Counted from the stretch's first letter, positions 7,134-26,018 are shown. The stretch: DNA of 32,000 nt from Ignicoccus hospitalis KIN4/I (GCF_000017945.1 NC_009776.1:450001-482000), one strand, 5' to 3'. Program-made: numbers and translations. The notes: generated by a model not told the origin, from the sequence alone.

Positions 7134-10100
7134 TTGTACGCTTCCTACCGACGCTCGTGCCCCTCGTGCGGAGGGGAAATAGAGGACGTCAACTTGTCCT
7201 TGGGCTTGCCTTGCGACAAGTGCTTGAGGGTTGTGGGCTTAGAGAGCTTGAAGTTAGACCCTTCTAAGAAGGACTCGCCCTCCGTCCGGAGGAGGCTGAT
7301 AGAACTAGGGGGGCCCTTAGGGGAAAGCTTGAAGCTCGAAGAGGAGCTGGAGTCCTTGGAGAAGGTGTTCCAAGAAGTCTTGGGAGCCCCCATGTGGAGC
7401 GCCCAGAGGGCTTGGGCCCTGAGGGCCCTGAGGGGGGAGAGCTTCTCCATAGTGGCCCCGACGGGCATGGGCAAGAGCACCTTGGGTGCGCTCCTTTCTG
7501 TGTATCTGAGCCACAAAAAGAAGAAGAAGAGCTACATTATAGTCCCCACCACGCCGCTCGTAGATATGATGTTCAGAAAGGTCTCCGCCTTCGCGGAGGC
7601 CTTCGGCGTCCGGGCGGTTTACTTCCACTCCAAGATGTCGCCCTCTCAGAGGAAGGAAATGAAGGAGAGGCTCCTCTCTGGGGACTTCGACGTACTCATT
7701 ACTACCTCCAGATTTCTAATAAATAATTTAGACTTACTGAAGAATTACGAGTTCGGATTCGTCTTCGTCGACGACGTCGATTCAGTCTTGAAGAGTCCCA
7801 AAAACGTGGACAGGATATTAATGGTGTTAGGCCTCCAAGAGTCAGACGTCAAAAGGCTGGAGGAGGTAGACAAGGAGCTCTCTAGGAAAGCACAAGTGTT
7901 AACGAAGCTTCAAGATTTGCAGAAGAGATACCAACTCTTAAAGGAGATGAGAGAGCTAGAGGAAGAATTGGAAGATTTGAAGAGGAAAGTTAAGGGGAAC
8001 TTGATAGTAAGCTCTGCTACGGGGAGAGCGAAAGGGAATAGGGTAAGGCTCTTCACGCGCTTGTTGGGCTTCACCCCGGGCGGCGTCGGAGAAGGGGTAA
8101 GGAACGTGGTCGACTCCTACTCCCGCTCCTCGGACGTCGTGGAAGTGGTCAAGAAGCTGGGCAAGGGAGGGCTGGTCTTCGTCCCCGCCGACTTGGGAGC
8201 CAAGGGAGCCGAGGAAGTCGCGGAGGCCTTGAGGGCCGCCGGGGTTGCAGCTGAGGTCGCGACCTCGGAGAGGATCGGCGTCATTAAGGACTTTGAGGAA
8301 GGGAGGGTTGAAGTCTTGGTGGGCGTGGCCACCCACTACGGGGTGTTGGTGAGGGGCATAGACTTGCCCCACGTGGTGCGCTACGCCGTCTTCGTAGGCG
8401 TGCCCCGGTTCAAGTTCAAGCTGAAGCTGGAAGAGCCCTCGCCCATGACCATTTATAGGCTCTGCTCGTTGGCGGCCAGGTTCTTCGAGGAGTGTGCCTC
8501 CCTCTACGCCAAGCTGCGCAAGTGGGTCCAGAGGCTGGGGCCCGCGGGGCTTCAAAGCGTAGAGGAGGCCTTGAAGGAGGGAAGCGCCTCCACCCCGGCC
8601 TCTAAGGACTTCATGGAAGCTTATACCAAACTGAAAGAGATAATAGAAAAAACGGATTTCATTGAAAAACTCAAGGAGTCCGGCGAAGTGGACGTGGTAG
8701 CGGAGGACTCTCTGTACGTCTTGATTCCCGACGCCGCCACCTACTTACAAGCCTCCGGGAGGACGTCCAGGCTTTACGCGGGAGGCGTCACCAAGGGCTT
8801 GTCCGTAGTACTGGTGGACTCGGAGCCCCTCTTCAGAGGCCTCAAGAAGAGGTTGGCGTGGGTGGTGGAGGAGTGGAAGGAGTTCGAGTCCTTGAACTTG
8901 AGTGAGCTGCTCAAGGAGATAGACGAGGATAGGAAGAAGGTCTTAAAGGTCATCAGGGGGGAGCTAAAGGTTGAAGAAGTTCGAGACCTCATGAAGACCG
9001 TACTAATGATAGTTGAGTCGCCCAACAAAGCTAGGACGATAACGAGCTTCTTCGGGCGCCCCAGCGTGAGACAAGTGAAGGGCGTGAAGGTTTACGAGGT
9101 CACCTTGGGGGACAAGCTCTTGTACGTGGCCGCCAGCGGAGGCCACGTGTACGACCTAGTCGAAGAGGCCGACCCTTGTAACGAGGAGCCTTGCATGCTC
9201 TTCGGCATAAGGGTAAAGGACGTGCCGGAGGAGGTGCTGAGCTCCATAAAGCGGTGCGCCGTGTGCGGCCACCAGTTCTCGGGGGACGTGAAGGAGTGCC
9301 CGAGGTGCGGCTCGCCCTTCATAAAGGACGCCAAGGACGTGGTGGACGGGTTAAGGGAGCTCGCCCAAGAAGTGGACGAGGTCCTAATCGGCACGGACCC
9401 CGACACGGAGGGGGAGAAGATAGGCTGGGACTTGAAGAACCTAATATCCCCGTTCGCGAAGAAGATAAGGAGGGCCGAGTTCCACGAAATAACGAAGAAG
9501 GCAATATTGAAAGCGTTGGAGAACCCAAGGGACTTCGACATGGGGTACGTTTGGTCCCAGATGGTCCGGAGGGCCGAGGACAGGCTGACAGGCTTCACCT
9601 TGAGCCCGAAGCTCTGGTTCGAACTGTGGCCGCAGCTGTGCGAGGTCTCCAAAGAAATGAAGAAGAAGCTGCTCGGGTGTCCGCTCACTAGGAACTTGTC
9701 CGCCGGAAGGGTCCAGACCCCCGTCCTCGGGTGGGTAATACAGAGGTACGAGGAATACGCCAAGTCCAAGAAGAAGTTCTACATAATAAGGTTCGACGGA
9801 CGCGAGCTCGAGTTCTCCGAGGACGAGTTGAGAGGCTTCTCCAAAAAGCTCGCAATAGACGGGAAGGTCAAAATACTCAAGGTAGAGGAGGAGGTAGAGG
9901 AGCTCAAGCCCTTGCCCCCCTACACCACAGACACCATGCTCGAGGACGCCTCCAAGCTGGGGCTGGACCCCTCGAGAGCTATGAGGGTAGCCCAAGACTT
10001 GTTCGAGATGGGGTTCATAACTTACCACAGGACGGACTCCACCAGGGTGTCGGACGCGGGCATAGCGGTGGCGAGGGAGTGGATAACCTCCAAGTTCGAG

Positions 10101-10913
10101 GGCTTGTTCGCGCCCAGGAGGTGGGGGGAGGGAGGGGCCCACGAGGCGATAAGGCCCACGAGGCCGCTGAGCGCGGAGGACCTCAAGAGGTTAATAGAGG
10201 AGGGCATGATAACGCCCCCTAGGGAGCTCAGCAAGCAACACTTCATGTTGTACGACATGATATTTAGGAGGTTTATGGCAAGCCAGATGAAGGAGGCGAA
10301 GGTTAAGAAAGCGGTGTACGAAATAACGGTTGAGGAGGGAGGTGCGGTAGTAGGCAAGAAGGTTTTGGAGAAATACGTAGAAAGGGTGTTCGACGGCTTC
10401 CTCTTAGTATACCCTATAGTCAAGATAGAGAGCCTCCCCGAGGGGGAGTACGAGGTTAAGGAGGTTAGGGCCGTCTCCCGCCACACGGTGCCCTTGTACA
10501 CCCAAGCCGACCTCATAAGGCTCATGAAGGAGAGGGGGCTCGGCAGGCCGAGCACCTACGCGAAGATAGTTAGTACCTTGCTCGAGAGGAGGTACGTAAC
10601 TCTGAGCAAGGTGGGCAAGAAACTCGTCCCCACGGTTAGGGGCTACGCTGTGTACTCGTACCTCACCGGGAAGGTAGTGGGCGCCGGCTGGGTTAGGAAG
10701 GCGCTGGAGGTCATCATAAATCCCGAGGGCAAGTCTAAGTACTTCCAAAAGCTGGTGGAAGAAGAGGCCACTAGGAGGTTGGAGAAGGTCATGGACGAGA
10801 TAGCGGAGAAGAAGGACGAGAAGATGTATATTAACGTACTCAAGGATATCATAGAGGAGACCAAGGTTATTCCTTTCCTAAGCGACAAGGGCGCTCAGCC
10901 CAGCCTCCGGTAG
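7134..10913 (+). CDS. rgy: reverse gyrase (SF2 helicase domain fused to type IA topoisomerase)
   Basis: N-terminal Zn finger CPSCGG...CDKC, Walker A APTGMGKST, DDVD box, Toprim IVESPNKARTI, second Zn finger CAVCGH...CPRCG, DPDTEGE, and active-site tyrosine context ITYHRTDS. 1259 aa. Confidence 0.95.
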   Translation: MYASYRRSCPSCGGEIEDVNLSLGLPCDKCLRVVGLESLKLDPSKKDSPSVRRRLIELGGPLGESLKLEEELESLEKVFQEVLGAPMWSAQRAWALRALRGESFSIVAPTGMGKSTLGALLSVYLSHKKKKKSYIIVPTTPLVDMMFRKVSAFAEAFGVRAVYFHSKMSPSQRKEMKERLLSGDFDVLITTSRFLINNLDLLKNYEFGFVFVDDVDSVLKSPKNVDRILMVLGLQESDVKRLEEVDKELSRKAQVLTKLQDLQKRYQLLKEMRELEEELEDLKRKVKGNLIVSSATGRAKGNRVRLFTRLLGFTPGGVGEGVRNVVDSYSRSSDVVEVVKKLGKGGLVFVPADLGAKGAEEVAEALRAAGVAAEVATSERIGVIKDFEEGRVEVLVGVATHYGVLVRGIDLPHVVRYAVFVGVPRFKFKLKLEEPSPMTIYRLCSLAARFFEECASLYAKLRKWVQRLGPAGLQSVEEALKEGSASTPASKDFMEAYTKLKEIIEKTDFIEKLKESGEVDVVAEDSLYVLIPDAATYLQASGRTSRLYAGGVTKGLSVVLVDSEPLFRGLKKRLAWVVEEWKEFESLNLSELLKEIDEDRKKVLKVIRGELKVEEVRDLMKTVLMIVESPNKARTITSFFGRPSVRQVKGVKVYEVTLGDKLLYVAASGGHVYDLVEEADPCNEEPCMLFGIRVKDVPEEVLSSIKRCAVCGHQFSGDVKECPRCGSPFIKDAKDVVDGLRELAQEVDEVLIGTDPDTEGEKIGWDLKNLISPFAKKIRRAEFHEITKKAILKALENPRDFDMGYVWSQMVRRAEDRLTGFTLSPKLWFELWPQLCEVSKEMKKKLLGCPLTRNLSAGRVQTPVLGWVIQRYEEYAKSKKKFYIIRFDGRELEFSEDELRGFSKKLAIDGKVKILKVEEEVEELKPLPPYTTDTMLEDASKLGLDPSRAMRVAQDLFEMGFITYHRTDSTRVSDAGIAVAREWITSKFEGLFAPRRWGEGGAHEAIRPTRPLSAEDLKRLIEEGMITPPRELSKQHFMLYDMIFRRFMASQMKEAKVKKAVYEITVEEGGAVVGKKVLEKYVERVFDGFLLVYPIVKIESLPEGEYEVKEVRAVSRHTVPLYTQADLIRLMKERGLGRPSTYAKIVSTLLERRYVTLSKVGKKLVPTVRGYAVYSYLTGKVVGAGWVRKALEVIINPEGKSKYFQKLVEEEATRRLEKVMDEIAEKKDEKMYINVLKDIIEETKVIPFLSDKGAQPSLR

Positions 10914-19133: not shown

Positions 19134-20135
19134 ATGGCGAACGCCCTACTGCTCGCGCTGAGGTCGCTCTGGCTGGGCGAGGAGCCCCCGTACGAGGAGG
19201 TCTTGGGGAGGGAGGGGGACGAGCGGGAAGTGAGGGAGCTGCTCTCTGGCTTGTGGGTAAAGTGCTACCCTCAAGGCGACAAGAGGCTGTGCGTCTACTC
19301 CTACAAGAGGCCTCCCAAGGATCCGGTGCCGCTCTTGCTGGACGCGCGGGGCACGGTGATAGAGTGGAGCAAGGACGGCCCGGAGCTGGTGGCCTACCCC
19401 TTTCACAAGTTCTTTAACTTGGGCGAGGCGGAGTTCCCGGAGAGGCCGCTCCTAGCGTACGAAAAGCTGGACGGCACCATGGTCTCCTTGTTCCTCTACG
19501 ACGGGGAGGTCAGGGCCGCGACGAGGAAAAAGCTGGACGTGGATTCTCCCTTCGCCAAAAAGGCGTTGGAGCTCTTCGAGGGCGAGCTGGGGGACGAGAC
19601 CAGGGTGTTCGAGCTGCTGGGCCCGGGGTCCGGGAGCCCCTGGGTCGGGGGCACCCAAGAGCTCTTGAGGGCCGGCGAGTGGTCCTTGGTCCCCTTGGCG
19701 TATAGGGACATGAAGACCTTGAAGTTGTATCCGTTGGAAGGTCCCACTAGGGTCGAGGTGGAAGACTTGGAAGACGCGAAGAGGAAGGCAGAAGGCTTCG
19801 GGGAGGGCTTGGTGTTGTGGTTCGAAGTGGGAAGCCAGAGGCCCTTGATGGCGAAGGTGAAGTCAGTTAAGTACAAGCGCTTGGTAGACCTCTTGAAGCT
19901 CGGGTGGGAAGGGCTGGCCAAGATAATACTGATGAACGCGTTGGACGACGCGGCCAGGATGTTGGACAATGAGGTATACTCCAAGGCAAAGGCTGTGGAG
20001 GGTATGCTGGACGAGATAGAGAGGGCCGTCTTGAGGGGGGAGTTCCCCCACGAGAGGGTTAGGGAGTGGCTCCCCATAGACCCCTCGAGGGCCCTAGAGG
20101 AGGCAGTGAGAGTTTGTCTGGAAGAAGGTTGTTGA
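19134..20135 (+). CDS. ATP-dependent RNA ligase, T4 RnlA (Rnl1)/Trl1-like nucleotidyltransferase
   Basis: ARGTVIE...HKFFNLGE followed by motif I EKLDGT (Lys111), motif III-like VFELLGP, motif IV GEGLVLWFE and motif V AKVKSVKY. Order and spacing parallel what I recall of phage T4 RnlA (CRGIMFE...EKFFNLNE...TKEDGSL...EGYVAV...FKIKSDWY). Confidence 0.7.
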   Translation: MANALLLALRSLWLGEEPPYEEVLGREGDEREVRELLSGLWVKCYPQGDKRLCVYSYKRPPKDPVPLLLDARGTVIEWSKDGPELVAYPFHKFFNLGEAEFPERPLLAYEKLDGTMVSLFLYDGEVRAATRKKLDVDSPFAKKALELFEGELGDETRVFELLGPGSGSPWVGGTQELLRAGEWSLVPLAYRDMKTLKLYPLEGPTRVEVEDLEDAKRKAEGFGEGLVLWFEVGSQRPLMAKVKSVKYKRLVDLLKLGWEGLAKIILMNALDDAARMLDNEVYSKAKAVEGMLDEIERAVLRGEFPHERVREWLPIDPSRALEEAVRVCLEEGC

Positions 20136-20512
20136 AGACCTTGTTCGTCGTAACTTGTAAGCCCGGGAAGGAGTTGCGCGCTGCGGAGGAGGTTATGGAC
20201 TTGTTGCTTTATTGCGACGAGGGGGCCTTGGCGGTTCCGACCGCTAAGGGGCTGGCATTGGGTACCACCTCCTTAGGACCCGAGGAGGCCGCTAAGTGCT
20301 TGGAAGGCAAGGTATCTGCATATATAAACTGGATATACTTTGGCGACGAGTTGTGCGAGAAGTGTAAGGCGTTGAAGAAACAATGCCTAGAGGAAGTGGA
20401 GGAGGGCTTTGAAGCCTTTTGCACGGGGAGGGCGATCGTGAAGATCAAAAAGGCTTTGAGGGCGAAAAGGGGAGTGTTGGTTAGTGTTCCTCTTCGCCGT
20501 AATGAGCGATAA
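20132..20512 (+). CDS. small protein, possible NFLD/THUMP-like RNA-binding fold (tentative)
   Basis: TTG 20132 overlaps the ligase stop (TTGA). MKTLFVVTCKPGKELRAAEEVMDLL resembles the N-terminal ferredoxin-like module that precedes THUMP domains. The track ORF start at 20066 lies inside the ligase gene and is unlikely. Confidence 0.4.
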   Translation: MKTLFVVTCKPGKELRAAEEVMDLLLYCDEGALAVPTAKGLALGTTSLGPEEAAKCLEGKVSAYINWIYFGDELCEKCKALKKQCLEEVEEGFEAFCTGRAIVKIKKALRAKRGVLVSVPLRRNER

Positions 20513-21911
20513 CAGCTCTTATGACCGGTCTCGCCAACAGCATGTAAACCATCATGCCCGCCGCGTGGGCCGCAACGGTCAAGGCCCACTCCATGGGGGT
20601 CGGGTAGTAGATCGCCAGCTTGCCCAGCACGTCCGGGGTGTAGCCCGGTATGACTATCGGCAGAGTCTTCTCACCTACCACCGCCAGTATTATCAAGGCG
20701 CTCAAGAAGACTACGCCCTTGCGCGTCTTCCTCAGCCTCGGCACGAATATGGTTAGTATTACGGCCAGCGAGCCGACGACTATCCAGAAGAAGTTCATTA
20801 GGGCCAAGTACTCCATGCCGGGGTAGCCCCAGCTGCAGCCGTTGAAGTTGGTGCCGCTGAAGAACACCGCGAAGTCCTTGAGTATCGGCTTCATTAGCGC
20901 GCAGAACGGCATGACGGCGAAGTTGAATATTCCTATCGCTTGGGCCCTCTTGTGGGGCTCAGTAGTGTACCAGAACAGCTCTTGGGCCTCCGACAAGGTG
21001 AAGTAGAGGCCGACGATCATGGCGGCGGTGGCCGCTATCAAAGTCTTTTCGTATACGTAGTTGGGAACCTTGAACTTCTTGTAGAACTTCTCGGCTATCA
21101 CAGATACTATTAATAACATTGCCGGACCGGCCGCTAAGGCAGTCGCCACGTAGCGCGGGGCCAGCAGAGGGGCGTTCCATATAGGCCTCGCCGTCAGGGG
21201 CTGGCTTATGAATCCCGTTACCGTGTGTATACCTATGGCCAGCGGCGCCGCGATAAGCATGAATAGGTACATGAGCCACTTAGGCGGGGCGTACTTGGGC
21301 CCCCTGCGGTACCAGTGAACCGCTATCAGTATCCCTATCAAGTTGACCACGAGGTACCCATTGAGCACCGTGAAGTCGTAGTCGAATATCGACTGCGGGT
21401 TGGGGAACTGGAGCTGGGCTACTATTGGTAGCGCCAGCAGCTGTATGGTCCTTATGGGCCGGCCGACGTCAACCAGCACGAGTAGTAGCGCCACTATAAG
21501 CGCCGCGACCGCTTGGACCTCCGCTAAGGGGGCAAGCCTCATGAACCCTTTGTCCCTGAAGACGTACGCTGCAACTCCGAACAGCACTCCCGCAGCTGCT
21601 ACTCCGACCCAGAAGACGAAGAACGAGATGTAGAGGCCCCACGCGACCCAGTCGTCCAACGCGGTGTAGACCATGCCTCCCCTATGCTCGCTAATGCCGA
21701 GCTGTTCCAACAGCTTGGGGTCCATGCCTAGGTGGTAGACCAGCTGGGTGTATATCGCTGGGCCCGCTTGTACGCCGGCCCAGAGACCCAAGCCGAAGGC
21801 GGTCAGACCGGCCATGGCGAATATCCACGTCCAGCCCCTCCAGTCGCCCTTGAACATGTGCTTTATTATGTACCATATGGTCACAAGAAACTCTACCACT
21901 GGGTTGCTCAC
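20481..21911 (-). CDS. NrfD/PsrC-type integral membrane quinone-interacting subunit
   Basis: 476 aa, at least 10 hydrophobic helices, W/Y/F-rich. Immediately downstream of a Tat-dependent 4-cluster FeS protein, the canonical arrangement of PsrBC, NrfCD, DsrOP and ActBC modules. Confidence 0.8.
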   Translation of the reverse strand: MSNPVVEFLVTIWYIIKHMFKGDWRGWTWIFAMAGLTAFGLGLWAGVQAGPAIYTQLVYHLGMDPKLLEQLGISEHRGGMVYTALDDWVAWGLYISFFVFWVGVAAAGVLFGVAAYVFRDKGFMRLAPLAEVQAVAALIVALLLVLVDVGRPIRTIQLLALPIVAQLQFPNPQSIFDYDFTVLNGYLVVNLIGILIAVHWYRRGPKYAPPKWLMYLFMLIAAPLAIGIHTVTGFISQPLTARPIWNAPLLAPRYVATALAAGPAMLLIVSVIAEKFYKKFKVPNYVYEKTLIAATAAMIVGLYFTLSEAQELFWYTTEPHKRAQAIGIFNFAVMPFCALMKPILKDFAVFFSGTNFNGCSWGYPGMEYLALMNFFWIVVGSLAVILTIFVPRLRKTRKGVVFLSALIILAVVGEKTLPIVIPGYTPDVLGKLAIYYPTPMEWALTVAAHAAGMMVYMLLARPVIRAVIAHYGEEEH

Positions 21912-21936
21912 TGCCCCTCACCTCCTCCGTCGCTCC

Positions 21937-23061
21937 TCAGTCGTGACCCCTCTCCTCTGCTTTTTCTCTACTTCCGTGGTGAGTCCCTTCGCCGTGCTTC
22001 GGGGTGCCCAGCCAGTTGCCGGACTTGGGGTTCTCGGAGTCCAGCGGAGGGGTCCTAGCGGGGCCGAAGTAGTAGAAGAACCTCGGCTTAGTGCCGGCGT
22101 AGGGCTTGAGGACGAACACCCCGTACTCCTTTATTATTCTCTGTATGGGCCCTTCCTCGTCGTGGAGGTTGCCGAAGGCCCTCGAGCCCACCGGACATAT
22201 CTCCACACAAGCCGTGGTCCCCCCGTCCCTGGTCCTCTGTATACACCAAGTACACTTCTCTACGGTATGCACCTCCCTGGGGACGTTCCCGAACACGTGC
22301 ATGTTGGGGTTGAGCGTCAGCGCGTCCACGGTGACTGGCTTCCAGTTCATGTGCCTAGCTCCGTAAGGACAAGCGGTTATGCAGTACCTACAGCCTATGC
22401 ACCGGTAGCTGTCCACGACGACTATCCCGTCGGCCTCTTGCCAAGTGGCCCTAACCGGACAAACCATAGTGCACGGCGGGTACTCGCACTGGTTGCACGC
22501 GACCGGTATGTAGACCCTATCCTTGTAAGGGGCCTCCTTGTAGTCTAGGTCTACTCCGAGCAGCTCGAGCTCCTCCCTGTTCACGTTGACTACCTTTATC
22601 CACTCTATGCCTTGGGTGCGGTCCACGTTGTTCTCTTGTACACAAGCGTAGGCGCACCTCCTACAGCCTATACACTTGTTCAAGTCCAGTGCCATGGCCC
22701 AGCGGACTCCCTTCTTAGCCAAGGTCCACTTTACCTTGATCTCCTCGCAGTGCTTCCTCGCCAGCCTACACTCCGGGCTGTTCTCGCCCAGCCTCTGGCA
22801 TATGGAGTTGGCGCTCTCCATGCACTTCTTCTTAGCCATCTCCTCCTTCTTCTTCGCTAGCTCTTTGATCTCTTCTGGGGTCTTATAGGGGCTGTACTCG
22901 CTTATTACGTACTCCCCCTCCTCGTACACGTAGCCCAGCAGCTCTTCGTCGCTGAGCTTGTGTAGGACCTTACCTACTTCGTCTCTGCTGACGGTCATCA
23001 AGCCTACCGCGCCGGCCGCGGCTATCCCCTTGAGCAAATTCCTACGGGTCTGGTTAGCCAT
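21937..23061 (-). CDS. Tat-exported four-cluster [4Fe-4S] ferredoxin subunit (NrfC/PsrB/DmsB/DsrO type)
   Basis: Twin-arginine signal MANQTRRNLLKGIAAAGAVG. Four cluster motifs: CIGCRRCAYAC, CNQCEYPPCTMVCP, CIGCRYCITACP and CTWC...CVEICP. About 100-aa extra N-terminal region carrying two further Cys pairs. Confidence 0.9.
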   Translation of the reverse strand: MANQTRRNLLKGIAAAGAVGLMTVSRDEVGKVLHKLSDEELLGYVYEEGEYVISEYSPYKTPEEIKELAKKKEEMAKKKCMESANSICQRLGENSPECRLARKHCEEIKVKWTLAKKGVRWAMALDLNKCIGCRRCAYACVQENNVDRTQGIEWIKVVNVNREELELLGVDLDYKEAPYKDRVYIPVACNQCEYPPCTMVCPVRATWQEADGIVVVDSYRCIGCRYCITACPYGARHMNWKPVTVDALTLNPNMHVFGNVPREVHTVEKCTWCIQRTRDGGTTACVEICPVGSRAFGNLHDEEGPIQRIIKEYGVFVLKPYAGTKPRFFYYFGPARTPPLDSENPKSGNWLGTPKHGEGTHHGSREKAEERGHD

Positions 23062-23084
23062 GGTCCCACCACCCCCACTTCGCG

Positions 23085-23735
23085 TTACTTCTTAACATAT
23101 GCTATAATGGAAAGAAACGCGGCTACGCCCATCAAGAAGAAGAGCGAATTGAGGACCGCGTCTTGTGGGTAGGGCTCAGGCCTGTCGCTTGGAGGGGGCA
23201 TTATGTTGGAGGGAGGCTTAATGGGGTCGTGGGGGTCGTGGCAGAACACACAAGACTTCCCCGGCACGGTCTTCAAGTTGGTGTACTTAGGGCACTCGTG
23301 GTACCAGTACGGGGAGCCCTTGTAACCGTAGACGAAGTGGGAGGAGCCTCCCTCACATACGAAGGTGCTGTTGGCGTGGGCCCCGACCAAGTAGTCCGCG
23401 TAGACCCTCGGGTGGCACTGTGCACACAAGGTGTCGTACTGGTGCATCTGCTCCGGGGAGGCGAGCTCCTTGGGTACTACAGTAGCCCCGTTGACGAGCT
23501 TAATGGGGTCTTGGGGGTCGTGGCAGTTGGAACAGTAGAGGCCAGAGTGGGCGCCGTGCAACAAGTTGATCTTGTGGAACTCCACCGCCTTAACGTTGCC
23601 GTCCAGCTTCAGCCAAGGCGTGTGGCAGTAGGTACACGGGTAGGCCGGAGTGTAAGCTAAGGCTACGGCGGCGAGTAACGGTAGGAAAGCGGCGAGCCTC
23701 TTCATGACCTCACTACCCAACCTTTGGGGCGCCAT
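23085..23735 (-). CDS. tetrahaem c-type cytochrome with signal peptide and C-terminal membrane anchor
   Basis: Four CxxCH motifs (CTYCH, CSNCH, CAQCH, CVFCH). Signal peptide MKRLAAFLPLLAAVALA (likely true start ATG 23705). C-terminal helix LNSLFFLMGVAAFLSIIAYVKK. Confidence 0.85.
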   Translation of the reverse strand: MAPQRLGSEVMKRLAAFLPLLAAVALAYTPAYPCTYCHTPWLKLDGNVKAVEFHKINLLHGAHSGLYCSNCHDPQDPIKLVNGATVVPKELASPEQMHQYDTLCAQCHPRVYADYLVGAHANSTFVCEGGSSHFVYGYKGSPYWYHECPKYTNLKTVPGKSCVFCHDPHDPIKPPSNIMPPPSDRPEPYPQDAVLNSLFFLMGVAAFLSIIAYVKK

Positions 23736-23754: not shown

Positions 23755-23841
23755 TTGGCCGGACCGGCCGCAAAGCGGTTTTCCCCTCGTCCCCTCCTCA
23801 AAAGGGGACCACATGCTTTGGGCGGAAACACAATAGGTAAG

Positions 23842-24960
23842 ATGTTCAGCGTAACTACTTGGGGGGAGAGCCACGGCAAGGCGATAGGCGCGGTGATAGA
23901 CGGCTGCCCGGCCGGCTTGCCCCTCAGCGAGGAGGACCTCTTGGTCGAGCTCTCGCTCCGCAGGCCGGGGAGGAGGTTCACCACCCCGAGGAGGGAGCCG
24001 GACGTCCCAGAGATACTGAGCGGGGTGTTCAACGGAAAGACCACCGGCATGCCTATTTCAATAATAATAAGAAATAGGGACGTTATCTCGAGCTACTACG
24101 AGAAGATCAAGGAAACTCCCAGGCCAGGTCACGCGGACTTAGCGTACATAAAGAAGTACGGCTACGAGCACTGGGACTACAGGGGAGGCGGGAGGGCCTC
24201 TGGGAGGGAGACCGCTGCTAGAGTGGCGGCGGGGGCGGTGGCCAAGAAGCTGCTCGGCTGCTTAGGAGTGGTGGTCTCCGGCTACGTGGTGGAGCTGGGC
24301 GGGGTAGAGTTCCCGTCAGCCGAGGACGCGGAGGAGTCCTTGAGGTCCCGCCTCTCGCCCTTCCGGGTCTTGTGTTGTGAGGAGAAGGCCGAGGAGGTCT
24401 TGAAAGAGGCGCTCGAGAGGAGGGACAGCGTGGGCGGGGTGGTGGAAGCGGTCGCGTGGAACGCGCCGGCGGGCTTGGGCGAGCCGGTGTTCGACAAGCT
24501 CAAGGCGGACCTCGCGAAGGCCATGATGAGCATACCCGCCAGCGTGGGCTTCGAGGTAGGTTGGGGCTTCAAGCTGGCCCGGCTCAGGGGGAGCGAGGCG
24601 AGGGACAAGATAGTGAGCTCGGCCGGCGAGGCGACTGTGGAGGGGGACAAGGCCGGCGGAATGCTGGGCGGAATAAGCGTCGGGGCGCCGATAAGGATTA
24701 GGGTCGCGTTCAAGCCCACGAGCTCCATAATGATCCCGGAAAAGACGGTGAACATACACACGCTGGAGGAGACTGAGGTGGAGGTGCCCGGGAGGCACGA
24801 CCCGGCCATAGTTCTGAGGGCCGTTTCGGTGGTCGAGTCGATGTTCGCCATAGTCTTGGTGGATCACGCGATCAGGGCCGGCCTCTTGAACCCGGTGAGG
24901 GTCGAGTGGGGCCCCCACTGCCAGAGGGTCTGGGAGCTCTACGCGGATAGGGTGCCCTAG
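23842..24960 (+). CDS. aroC: chorismate synthase
   Basis: MFSVTTWGESHGKAIGAVIDGCPAGL, RRPGR, RPGHADL, GGGRASGRETA and GGISVG are classic AroC signatures. The longer track ORF from 23755 adds a non-conserved basic extension. Confidence 0.9.
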   Translation: MFSVTTWGESHGKAIGAVIDGCPAGLPLSEEDLLVELSLRRPGRRFTTPRREPDVPEILSGVFNGKTTGMPISIIIRNRDVISSYYEKIKETPRPGHADLAYIKKYGYEHWDYRGGGRASGRETAARVAAGAVAKKLLGCLGVVVSGYVVELGGVEFPSAEDAEESLRSRLSPFRVLCCEEKAEEVLKEALERRDSVGGVVEAVAWNAPAGLGEPVFDKLKADLAKAMMSIPASVGFEVGWGFKLARLRGSEARDKIVSSAGEATVEGDKAGGMLGGISVGAPIRIRVAFKPTSSIMIPEKTVNIHTLEETEVEVPGRHDPAIVLRAVSVVESMFAIVLVDHAIRAGLLNPVRVEWGPHCQRVWELYADRVP

Positions 24961-26018
24961 CGCTGCCAACACACGCCCTTTACCCTCATAACGAATGGCT
25001 TGTTCAGCTCACCCGATATTTCCACCTCGAGCTCCGGGAGGAACTTCTTAACCACGTGCACGTGGGTCCAAGCGTGCATGGTAAGGGCCGCGCCTCCCAC
25101 CTCGGTCCTTCCGCAAGCTAAGGAGACGTAAGGAACTATCATGTCGCTCATGTGCCTGTCCAAAGCCTTGCCCGTGCTCAAGTCCTCCAAGAGCTTCCGC
25201 GCCGCCTCCTCGCCCACCCTCTCGGCCCTCTTCCCCCTAGCTCCCAACGAGTCCGCGCCCAACAAGCTCCTCTCCGTTATGGCCCAAAGCACTATCCCGC
25301 TCCCGGGCCCCAAGTGGGGGTCCCTCTCCGGAGGGTACCACTCCAAGTCGATGTCTACGTTCTTTAGGCCGCTCTTCTTGAGGACCTCTTCGGCGGCCTT
25401 CGCTTGCCTCTCCGCGACGTGCTTAGGGAGCTTGACGCAGTGAGAGAGCCCGCGGACCTTCAGCACCTCGCCCCGCTCCACCTCCCCCCACTGGGTCAGT
25501 GAGTCCACAGGGCGGGAGGCGAACTCGACCTCTCCCCCTCCCTTGGGGTAGTGGCCTCGCCGCTTGAGGACCAACTCCGTCTTGGCGCCGAACCTCTCCA
25601 GGAGGGGATAGAAGACGAACCTCAAGTAGTCCACCGGAGGGCTCATCGGCACGTCCGTACCCCCTCTCAGCTGAACCCTGACCTCTCCGGGGGCGAAGAG
25701 AGCCGCGGGAGTTACTGCTTGCAAGACCAAGCTGACGCTGCCCGCGGTGCCTATGTCGAACCTAAACGTCCCGGCCTTCAAAGTCTTCGGTATGAACACT
25801 ATTTCGGTGGAGCCCAGCTCCAAGCCGCGGACCTCCGCGTCGGTCATCTCGGCCAAGGCCTTGACGGCCACCATGTGTTGCCTCCTCAAGCCCGGGTTCT
25901 TCCTCTTAGCCCTGATGTTGAATATTCTAACCGGTTTCAAAGTCACGGCAGAGAGTGCCACGGAGGTCCTAAGTATTTGGCCACCTCCCTCGCCGAAGGA
26001 GCCGTCTATCTCGATCAT
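24957..26018 (-). CDS. rtcA: RNA 3'-terminal phosphate cyclase
   Basis: MIEIDGSFGEGGGQILRTSVALS N-terminus and GHYPKGGGEV are typical RtcA. Candidate adenylylated His in the C-terminal ALTMHAWTHVHV region. 353 aa. Confidence 0.9.
   Translation of the reverse strand: MIEIDGSFGEGGGQILRTSVALSAVTLKPVRIFNIRAKRKNPGLRRQHMVAVKALAEMTDAEVRGLELGSTEIVFIPKTLKAGTFRFDIGTAGSVSLVLQAVTPAALFAPGEVRVQLRGGTDVPMSPPVDYLRFVFYPLLERFGAKTELVLKRRGHYPKGGGEVEFASRPVDSLTQWGEVERGEVLKVRGLSHCVKLPKHVAERQAKAAEEVLKKSGLKNVDIDLEWYPPERDPHLGPGSGIVLWAITERSLLGADSLGARGKRAERVGEEAARKLLEDLSTGKALDRHMSDMIVPYVSLACGRTEVGGAALTMHAWTHVHVVKKFLPELEVEISGELNKPFVMRVKGVCWQR

Follow-up and report, generated by a model that had tools for sequence, protein, structure and literature searches.

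The window analysed here, a 32,000-nucleotide stretch of the Ignicoccus hospitalis KIN4/I genome (GCF_000017945.1, NC_009776.1:450001-482000), contains the minus-strand operon Igni_0528-0530. This operon encodes a tetrahaem cytochrome c, a four-[4Fe-4S] protein exported by twin-arginine translocation (Tat), and an NrfD-family membrane subunit. From its sequence, the module is assigned to the archaeal branch of a family that combines homologues of DsrO and DsrP with a bis-His tetrahaem cytochrome, and that is sister to true DsrOP. With a probability of roughly one half, the complex acts as a non-catalytic membrane hub that supplies octahaem cytochromes with electrons.

The operon is a rediscovery of a published system, so that the original prediction does not amount to a discovery. 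Podar et al. described Igni528-530 in 2008 as a "bacterial-type polysulfide reductase", reported the same cluster in Hyperthermus butylicus, and set it against Igni801-803, a complete SreABC-type sulfur reductase that includes the catalytic subunit as well as its own iron-sulfur (FeS) and NrfD subunits, the latter with eight transmembrane helices (TMH) (PMC2614490). All three proteins have been detected by proteomics (Iho0528-0530, RSpC 13-174), so the genes are expressed; in co-culture with Nanoarchaeum equitans they were up ~2-4-fold, alongside the hydrogenase and ATP synthase, and Iho0801-0803 was down >5-fold (Giannone et al. 2011, PMC3149612). Purification from membrane fractions has yielded Igni_0530 in the form of a tetrahaem cytochrome (Nass et al. 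2014, as cited in PMC4429474), indicating covalently bound haem, and the genome has genes for the maturation proteins CcmB, C, E and F (Kletzin et al. 2015, PMC4429474).

Our additions are modest. They comprise a placement of the module outside DsrJOP, Psr, Nrf, Qrc, alternative complex III (ACIII) and Cbc4, evidence for a cytochrome with bis-His haems throughout, a deep crenarchaeal clade as opposed to a recent bacterial import, and a recurrent linkage to octahaem cytochromes of the IhOCC type and to NapA. The module is one of few expressed membrane redox complexes in I. hospitalis, and its abundance rises with energy demand while that of the canonical Sre-type reductase falls. Knowledge of its partner and direction would clarify the electron transport chain of an organism that respires sulfur with H2, has an energised outer membrane, serves as the host of Nanoarchaeum and is reported to lack quinones. 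A widespread bacterial family of DsrOP homologues with a tetrahaem cytochrome would thereby gain a function as well.

Table 1. Features of the operon and of its surroundings, in window coordinates (ORF, open reading frame)
Feature	Position	Strand	Remarks
Tetrahaem cytochrome c gene, Igni_0530	23085-23735	minus	ORF, 216 aa as called
Tat-exported four-[4Fe-4S] subunit gene, Igni_0529	21937-23061	minus	ORF, 374 aa
NrfD-family membrane subunit gene, Igni_0528	20481-21911	minus	ORF, 476 aa
Cytochrome-to-FeS spacer, 23 nt	23062-23084	minus	contains GGTGG, Shine-Dalgarno-like
FeS-to-NrfD spacer, 25 nt	21912-21936	minus	contains GGAGGTGA, Shine-Dalgarno-like
TATA-like box TTTCAATAAAAA	23740-23751	minus	upstream of operon, read from sequence
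Chorismate synthase	23755-24960		neighbour of module
RNA ligase	19134-20135		neighbour of module
Small Cys-rich ORF, 148 aa	20066-20512	plus	convergent with NrfD gene
Reverse gyrase	7134-10913		hyperthermophile marker
Glutamyl-tRNA reductase (hemA)	1641-2966	plus	first step of haem synthesis
RNA 3'-phosphate cyclase	24957-26018	minus	a few kb from module

The original prediction had described a minus-strand operon with gaps of 23-25 nt for a tetrahaem cytochrome with a signal peptide and a C-terminal anchor, a Tat-exported protein with four [4Fe-4S] motifs, and a 476-aa polytopic NrfD-type subunit, with no catalytic gene alongside. This description holds in all its parts. Pfam scans of all large ORFs in the window revealed no molybdopterin, NrfA or other catalytic subunit, and a CxxCH motif occurs in none of its ORFs besides the cytochrome. 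The GC content of the operon is that of the window.

The cytochrome as called is identical at every residue to Igni_0530 (UniProt A8A9W0; Table S1 of PMC4429474). Its translation probably starts at the second ATG at 23705 (M11), giving 206 aa, because the N-termini of the homologues begin there and because of the position of the TATA-like box. The latter is likely the archaeal promoter element of the operon. It lies just ~5 nt ahead of the first ATG, a spacing that would be compatible with a transcript start between the two candidate ATGs, and a GTGAGGT motif precedes the second one.

The four CxxCH motifs of Igni_0530 are found at residues 34, 68, 104 and 162, between an N-terminal hydrophobic (Sec) signal and a C-terminal transmembrane segment (193-211), and the protein matches Pfam Cytochrome_C7 (E=1.9e-6). 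Together with four further histidines (H54, H60/63, H120 and H169), these motifs are essentially invariant among 69 homologous cytochromes. Such conservation is the signature of bis-His ligation at all four haems, which would leave no open catalytic haem; the four conserved distal histidines therefore suggest that the haems serve electron transfer and not catalysis. An insert at residues ~128-150 (23286-23354, minus strand) is specific to the Ignicoccus/Pyrodictiaceae clade and contains an invariant H146 and C148. Directly before it lies C127, where bacterial cytochromes have a tryptophan. This C127/H146/C148 region could form a disulfide or provide an unusual ligand near a haem.

The cytochrome family is highly divergent, as is evident from an exhaustive profile search in which 224 representatives passed E<=1e-3 and only 11 reached E<=1e-10; a word-indexed homologue search returned 12 close relatives. 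No sequence in the PDB matched the cytochrome below E=0.46. The AlphaFold2 model, based on an 11-sequence alignment, was weak (mean pLDDT, the predicted local distance difference test, 64; predicted template-modelling score, pTM, 0.48), and a Foldseek search of the PDB with this model gave noise only (best E=1.6).

Igni_0529 carries the twin-arginine motif TRRNLLK (Pfam TAT_signal, E=1.1e-3), also matches Pfam Fer4_11, and contains 16 cysteines in the series CxxCxxCxxxC, CxxCx4CxxxCP, CxxCxxCxxxCP and CxxCx11CxxxCP. This order is the classic four-cluster arrangement of PsrB, NrfC and DsrO. Both the Tat motif and the 16 cluster cysteines are kept across the alignment of homologues. Among PDB sequences, PsrB (2vpw_B, E=4e-34) and ArrB were the top matches, and the FeS part of ActB was matched as well. 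The proteomics paper gives Iho_0529 as 353 aa with no signal peptide (PMC3149612). The annotated start is apparently M22 of the 374-aa ORF, which removes the Tat signal kept in all homologues; this may explain the published claim that the genome lacks ferredoxins with Tat signals.

The FeS subunits of the Crenarchaeota have a helical N-terminal extension (residues ~80-105; 22747-22824, minus strand) with four extra cysteines, C-x7-C-x9-C-x6-C, which are absent from the bacterial homologues and from DsrO. One metagenome-assembled genome (MAG) is without the first and fourth of them. The pattern suggests two disulfides or an additional metal site. In H. butylicus, the FeS gene of the module (L087 8908-9976) is called as two ORFs of 206 and 154 aa, so it could be frameshifted or a pseudogene, or the genome of the type strain could contain a sequencing error there.

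The membrane subunit Igni_0528 matches Pfam NrfD (E=1.3e-25) and has ~10 transmembrane helices; its database copy is 472 aa long. Three short insertions are specific to Ignicoccus. The Ignicoccus NrfD proteins are ~55 aa longer than their Pyrodictiaceae counterparts, mainly owing to a 31-aa hydrophobic insert at residues 330-360 (20832-20924, minus strand), which was modelled with low confidence. The AlphaFold2 model as a whole reached a pTM of 0.82. Foldseek aligned it to the ActC chains 6btm_C, 8k9e_C and 6f0k_C (E ~1e-8, TM-score 0.59-0.65), and ActC was also the top match in the PDB sequence search. By contrast, PsrC (2vpw_C) was never returned by either the sequence or the fold search of the PDB, which gave ActC and ActF instead. 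Igni_0528 is thus a member of group C as defined by Calisto & Pereira 2021, the 10-helix proteins ActC, ActF and DsrP, and not of the 8-helix Psr/Nrf type. Asp148 aligns with His139 of ActC (Asp106/110 in DsrP) and is kept in 87 of 88 family members; Ser174 aligns with the pocket serine Ser164 of ActC and is kept in 86 of the 88. The two are putative residues of a quinone site at the membrane's positive (P) side.

Placement among known redox modules

The likeness to DsrJOP and ACIII noted in the original prediction is apt. The curated NCBIfam model that best matches the FeS subunit is DsrO (NF045797, 172.3 bits), and DsrP (NF045798, 172.9 bits) is the best for the membrane subunit. Scores for TtrB, ArrB, QrcC, NrfC and QrcD were far below these, and the PsrC and NrfD equivalog models of NCBIfam did not match the membrane subunit. 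The hidden Markov model (HMM) scores and the tree described below put the membrane subunit close to DsrP.

Membership in DsrJOP itself was rejected, since both scores fall under the curated cut-offs (200 bits for DsrO and 350 bits for DsrP; the DsrP of an Archaeoglobus MAG, used as a positive control, scored 393.7 bits on NF045798). The module shares with DsrJOP the topology and the quinol-site residues. However, the Igni_0530 tetrahaem, with four CxxCH motifs and four distal histidines, is unrelated to the triheme DsrJ with its His/Cys-ligated haem. No dsrMK genes were found in the window or in the crenarchaeal loci. In true DsrMKJOP loci, the NrfD gene is accompanied by a ~130-aa three-haem ORF and no Igni_0530 homologue is present.

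A closer counterpart is the bacterial 'DsrOhPh-tetrahaem' locus of cable bacteria and other bacteria, an earlier 'candidate ACIII' with four His-His haems and a position near DsrP, which also occurs in organisms without dissimilatory sulfur metabolism (PMC13047784). The family has been named 'DsrOhPhCyt' in a preprint on the cryo-EM structure of DsrMKJOP (10.64898/2026.08.25.746951). Its three parts are those of the Ignicoccus module: a tetrahaem cytochrome with His-His haems (predicted from conservation in Ignicoccus), whose gene adjoins those for the FeS and NrfD proteins, a DsrO homologue with four clusters and Tat export, and a cofactor-free DsrP homologue. The NrfD protein lies near DsrP yet outside the canonical clade, both in HMM cross-scores and in a neighbour-joining tree built without bootstrap or a reference NrfD set. 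The crenarchaeal clade differs in forming a deep separate branch, in the C-terminal transmembrane tether and the C127/H146/C148 insert of its cytochrome, and in the four-Cys extension of the FeS subunit; the TMH1 protein specific to cable bacteria is absent.

Cbc4 (CbcSTU) of Geobacter sulfurreducens, a presumed quinol:cytochrome c oxidoreductase, has an identical architecture of anchored tetrahaem, four-[4Fe-4S] protein and integral membrane subunit. CbcS, however, has 160 aa and is anchored at its N-terminus, whereas Igni_0530 is anchored at its C-terminus. Geobacter-type loci contain two such modules side by side, an Igni-like first one and a CbcS-like second one. Orthology with Cbc4 was rejected in favour of paralogy, as the 162-165-aa CbcS-like cytochromes of the second module were not matched by Igni_0530 at E<=1e-3; the NrfD protein of the window is closest to the first module (as tested on the Geobacter-type loci).

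Other assignments were rejected as well. For NrfABCD, NrfC reached 114.7 bits where 377.6 would be required, the NrfD equivalog gave no match, and no pentahaem genes are present. E. coli NrfBCD follows the same logic, in which an NrfD-type quinol dehydrogenase passes electrons to a Tat-exported FeS protein, a multihaem cytochrome and a separate multihaem reductase, but NrfB is a soluble pentahaem protein and the window has no NrfA gene. For ACIII, there is no ActB with a molybdopterin-like domain (the similarity of the 374-aa FeS protein to ActB is confined to the FeS part at the C-terminus of the latter), and a pentahaem ActA is absent, as are ActD, ActE and ActF. The ActC-like fold of the quinol-binding subunit is nevertheless present, ActC being the top solved structure for Igni_0528. 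I. hospitalis is a strict anaerobe without a monohaem gene at the locus, whereas the monohaem cytochrome gene downstream of the module in the Pyrodictiaceae recalls ActE. QrcABCD was rejected on the scores of QrcC (131 bits against 400) and QrcD (29.5 against 570) and for want of QrcB. PsrABC/SreABC shares a PsrB-like FeS subunit, an NrfD-family anchor and the name used in annotation, but the whole window has no molybdopterin subunit, the ~10 TMH contrast with an 8-TMH anchor, and the cytochrome is an extra component.

Relatives and gene neighbourhoods

A scan of species-representative genomes found at least 586 relatives of the NrfD protein, and 80 loci were analysed together with loci fetched for named relatives. 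An Igni_0530-homologous cytochrome gene lies directly upstream of the FeS gene in ~70 of the analysed loci. Archaeal carriers of the cytochrome-FeS-NrfD unit include Ignicoccus islandicus, Pyrolobus, Pyrodictium, Hyperthermus, and Geoglobus and Hydrothermarchaeota MAGs. Bacterial carriers belong to the Desulfobacterota (and Geobacter-type bacteria), Bacteroidota, Planctomycetota, Nitrospirota, Acidobacteriota, Gemmatimonadota and Gammaproteobacteria.

In the neighbour-joining tree, the NrfD proteins of Ignicoccus and the Pyrodictiaceae make up a deep monophyletic clade next to the group that unites DsrP with the NrfD proteins of the bacterial tetrahaem modules, and true DsrMKJOP loci form a clade of their own. 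Igni_0528 scored 247 bits on an HMM of the bacterial modules and 205 bits on one of DsrP. When run on each other's HMMs, DsrPs and bacterial module proteins reached 360-470 bits, with true DsrPs at 430-474 on the bacterial-module HMM. A recent transfer from a deltaproteobacterium (Podar 2008) was rejected, as the protein has its own deep clade, is less bacterial-module-like than true DsrP and is encoded in an operon of unremarkable GC content. These features therefore favour an old lineage common to Ignicoccus and the Pyrodictiaceae.

The genes around the module change from group to group. An IhOCC-type octahaem gene lies directly downstream of the NrfD gene in five bacterial loci (L026, L027, L054, L067 and L078), and an overlapping octahaem ORF is found in a sixth (L040). 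These loci are mostly titled Phycisphaerae or Planctomycetaceae, and all six group with one another in the NrfD tree. The module of H. butylicus and that of a Pyrodictium MAG are each preceded immediately upstream by an octahaem gene of the same strand. The top PDB match of the module-adjacent octahaems is 4QO5, the I. hospitalis octahaem Igni_0955 (E=9e-75 for the Pyrodictium MAG and 3e-50 for a Planctomycetaceae locus), compared with ~1e-17 to 1e-19 for canonical HAO.

The gene order of P. delaneyi and Pyrofollis japonicus begins with the octahaem, followed by a ~500-aa protein, HTH_10, ccmB (which was not seen in Pyrofollis), thioredoxin, ccmF and ccmC. P. occultum and P. abyssi have this ccm block too, and there it runs straight into the tetrahaem, FeS and NrfD genes, a monohaem cytochrome and ccmA. 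A like grouping of Pyrde_0485-0496 is given in the proteomics paper on P. delaneyi (PMC8105010). The ~500-aa protein always follows the octahaem gene in the Pyrodictiaceae (L087 6509-8026; L089 12777-14333; L090 12761-14233); it has no Pfam or NCBIfam match, and the Hyperthermus copy has a C-terminal transmembrane segment. Right after the NrfD gene, the Pyrodictiaceae also have a gene for a C-terminally anchored mono- or dihaem cytochrome (L003 11327-12193; L005 11418-12050; L088 11415-12056), which is missing in both I. hospitalis and I. islandicus. This cytochrome falls into Kletzin cluster 30 and is a relative of the one in the Aeropyrum bc complex (PMC4429474).

A NapA-type periplasmic nitrate reductase gene adjoins the module in ~18 bacterial loci. 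On the NapA model (cut-off 904 bits), one of these proteins scored 973 bits (L084), four other full-length ones 869-905, and a shorter one (L026) 678. This adjacency fits the role of a quinol dehydrogenase for periplasmic reductases. Other multihaem cytochromes lie beside the module in many further loci. Taken together, the neighbourhoods in relatives suggest periplasmic multihaem or NapA-type reductases as partners.

A separate observation concerns the octahaem genes. A ~650-aa fusion of a PAPS (3'-phosphoadenosine 5'-phosphosulfate) reductase with a ferredoxin is encoded beside an IhOCC-type octahaem gene, on the opposite strand, in both I. hospitalis (L091 11968-13908) and Pyrofollis japonicus (L090 7820-9790). 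This adjacency hints at a link between the octahaems and sulfur-oxyanion metabolism.

Proposed electron flow and partners

Functionally, the module resembles the quinol dehydrogenases of the NrfBCD, Cbc and DsrJOP types, and its descent would be that of a DsrO/DsrP-homologue module with a tetrahaem cytochrome. In the DsrMKJOP structure, menadiol is bound in DsrP <8 Å from a DsrO cluster, and it has been proposed that electrons flow from DsrP through DsrO to DsrJ and that the periplasm receives the protons (preprint 10.64898/2026.08.25.746951). The conserved D148 and S174 and the homology to DsrP therefore suggest an outward quinol-to-FeS-to-haem wire. The three subunits would form a complex on the outer face of the membrane with no catalytic site of its own. 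The cofactor-free NrfD-type subunit would offer a P-side quinol/quinone pocket beside the first [4Fe-4S] cluster of the Tat-exported subunit, with protons presumably released outwards. Electrons would then pass through the four clusters to the four bis-His haems of the membrane-tethered cytochrome, and from there to a separately encoded enzyme in the intermembrane compartment, a role parallel to that of NrfBCD in feeding NrfA. The likeliest acceptors are the IhOCC-type (HAO-family) octahaems Igni_0955 and Igni_1359, abundant proteins that occur in soluble as well as membrane-associated form and at both membranes (PMC4429474); the OTR-like Igni_1130 or the Nap-like Igni1377-1380 complex may perhaps be further acceptors.

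The interpretation given in the original prediction is supported in part. It had proposed a stand-alone electron conduit between the membrane pool and a soluble or outer-compartment partner, for instance a sulfur or hydrogen redox enzyme. The self-contained, outward and non-catalytic character agrees with ~70 loci in which the unit is kept and its neighbours change, but these neighbourhoods point to multihaem or NapA reductases in place of a hydrogenase or a classic sulfur enzyme. For the link to the membrane pool, the conserved pocket residues speak in favour and the reported lack of quinones in I. hospitalis against.

Several points weigh against the hub proposed here. Solvent extraction found no quinones in I. 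hospitalis (PMC4429474), so the quinol step may not apply there, and electron input and direction are less certain in this organism. Neither Igni_0955 nor Igni_1359 is linked to the module in I. hospitalis, and Igni_1359 was down 2.3-fold in the co-culture in which Igni_0528 was up 4-fold (PMC3149612). The IhOCC association is limited to one bacterial clade of the NrfD tree and the Pyrodictiaceae, and in the latter the clustering could be a mere 'cytochrome island' around the ccm genes. The putative octahaem partnership is drawn from gene neighbourhoods. The cytochrome model is too poor for its fold to be assigned or for a docking test.

The lack of extractable quinones also favours an alternative in which the NrfD subunit is only an anchor and proton path, and electrons enter the FeS/haem chain from a protein partner. 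A quinone-free precedent is the organohalide-respiration complex of Dehalococcoides, for whose NrfD-like subunit a comparable role has been proposed (PMC10772276). We consider this very doubtful. The quinone-pocket residues are strictly conserved, and the failed extraction may reflect sensitivity. There is a mention of Men-pathway homologues in I. hospitalis (PMC3914697), and the use of methylmenaquinones has been described for related Pyrodictiaceae (PMC8105010).

Electrons might also flow in the reverse direction, as in Qrc. Soluble octahaems reduced by hydrogenase (Igni_0955 and Igni_1359) would then deliver electrons into the membrane through the module as a cytochrome c:quinone oxidoreductase, feeding a quinol-oxidising reductase such as SreABC. 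The architecture is as in QrcACD, the native hydrogenase reduced Igni_0955 in vitro (PMC4429474), and NrfD-family sites are reversible in principle (PMC8076601). This direction is nevertheless improbable, given the weak similarity to Qrc noted above, a nearest characterised relative, DsrP, that oxidises quinol (preprint 10.64898/2026.08.25.746951), and bacterial neighbours (NapA and IhOCC-type) that are reductases requiring electrons. Moreover, FeS and membrane subunits are already encoded within the hydrogenase operon (PMC3149612), and the quinone that such a route would reduce was not detected (PMC4429474).

Previous authors have proposed a sulfur-reductase role for the module (Podar 2008, PMC2614490; Kletzin 2015, PMC4429474; and Nass 2014, as cited there). 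It would be the electron-transfer and anchor part of an H2:sulfur oxidoreductase and would work with a catalytic subunit encoded elsewhere, SreA (Igni_0802), or within a hydrogenase-sulfur reductase supercomplex. I. hospitalis is known to respire with no acceptor but sulfur, the FeS subunit resembles PsrB, and haem c is present in the H2:S0 complexes of Pyrodictium abyssi and P. brockii (as cited in PMC4429474). The joint increase of the module with hydrogenase and ATP synthase (PMC3149612) would also fit. However, Igni801-803 is self-sufficient (PMC2614490) and was regulated in the opposite direction (PMC3149612). The bacterial copies of the module lie in nap or cytochrome operons, and no PsrC- or SreC-type signature was found in NCBIfam or in sequence and fold searches of the PDB. 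Pyrolobus fumarii, another carrier of the module, is not known to reduce sulfur. The module is also kept in P. delaneyi Su06, which is described as not reducing sulfur (PMC8105010). We therefore regard a sulfur-reductase role as rather unlikely.

A variant would retain the octahaems proposed for the hub. Igni_0528-0530 and the IhOCC octahaems would then form a true molybdenum-free respiratory sulfur or polysulfide reductase, with the NrfD subunit as a quinone-independent proton path or anchor and the Sre-type molybdoenzyme dispensable. MccSep of Geobacter, a newly described multihaem polysulfide reductase (PMC13510729), offers an analogue for sulfur respiration by molybdenum-free c-type cytochromes. 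This variant is a long shot.

Other features of the window

The rest of the window contains housekeeping genes only, as judged from Pfam scans of all other sizeable ORFs. Matches were obtained for glutamyl-tRNA reductase, hydantoinase, reverse gyrase, a helicase, the eIF-2B family, an M20 peptidase, a phosphoesterase, RNA ligase, chorismate synthase, RNA cyclase, an SDH-type protease, a subtilase and NAD kinase. The module is flanked by the chorismate synthase gene (aroC) on one side and by the small ORF and RNA ligase genes on the other, as the original prediction had it. The small Cys-rich ORF has no match in Pfam and shares 32 nt (20481-20512) with the 3' end of the NrfD gene.

Two further genes recur near copies of the module. 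The window contains hemA, and ALAD (hemB) lies near the H. butylicus copy, which may be coincidental. An RNA 3'-phosphate cyclase gene is also found a few kb from the module of Pyrodictium occultum (L005 19828-20913) and may represent residual synteny.

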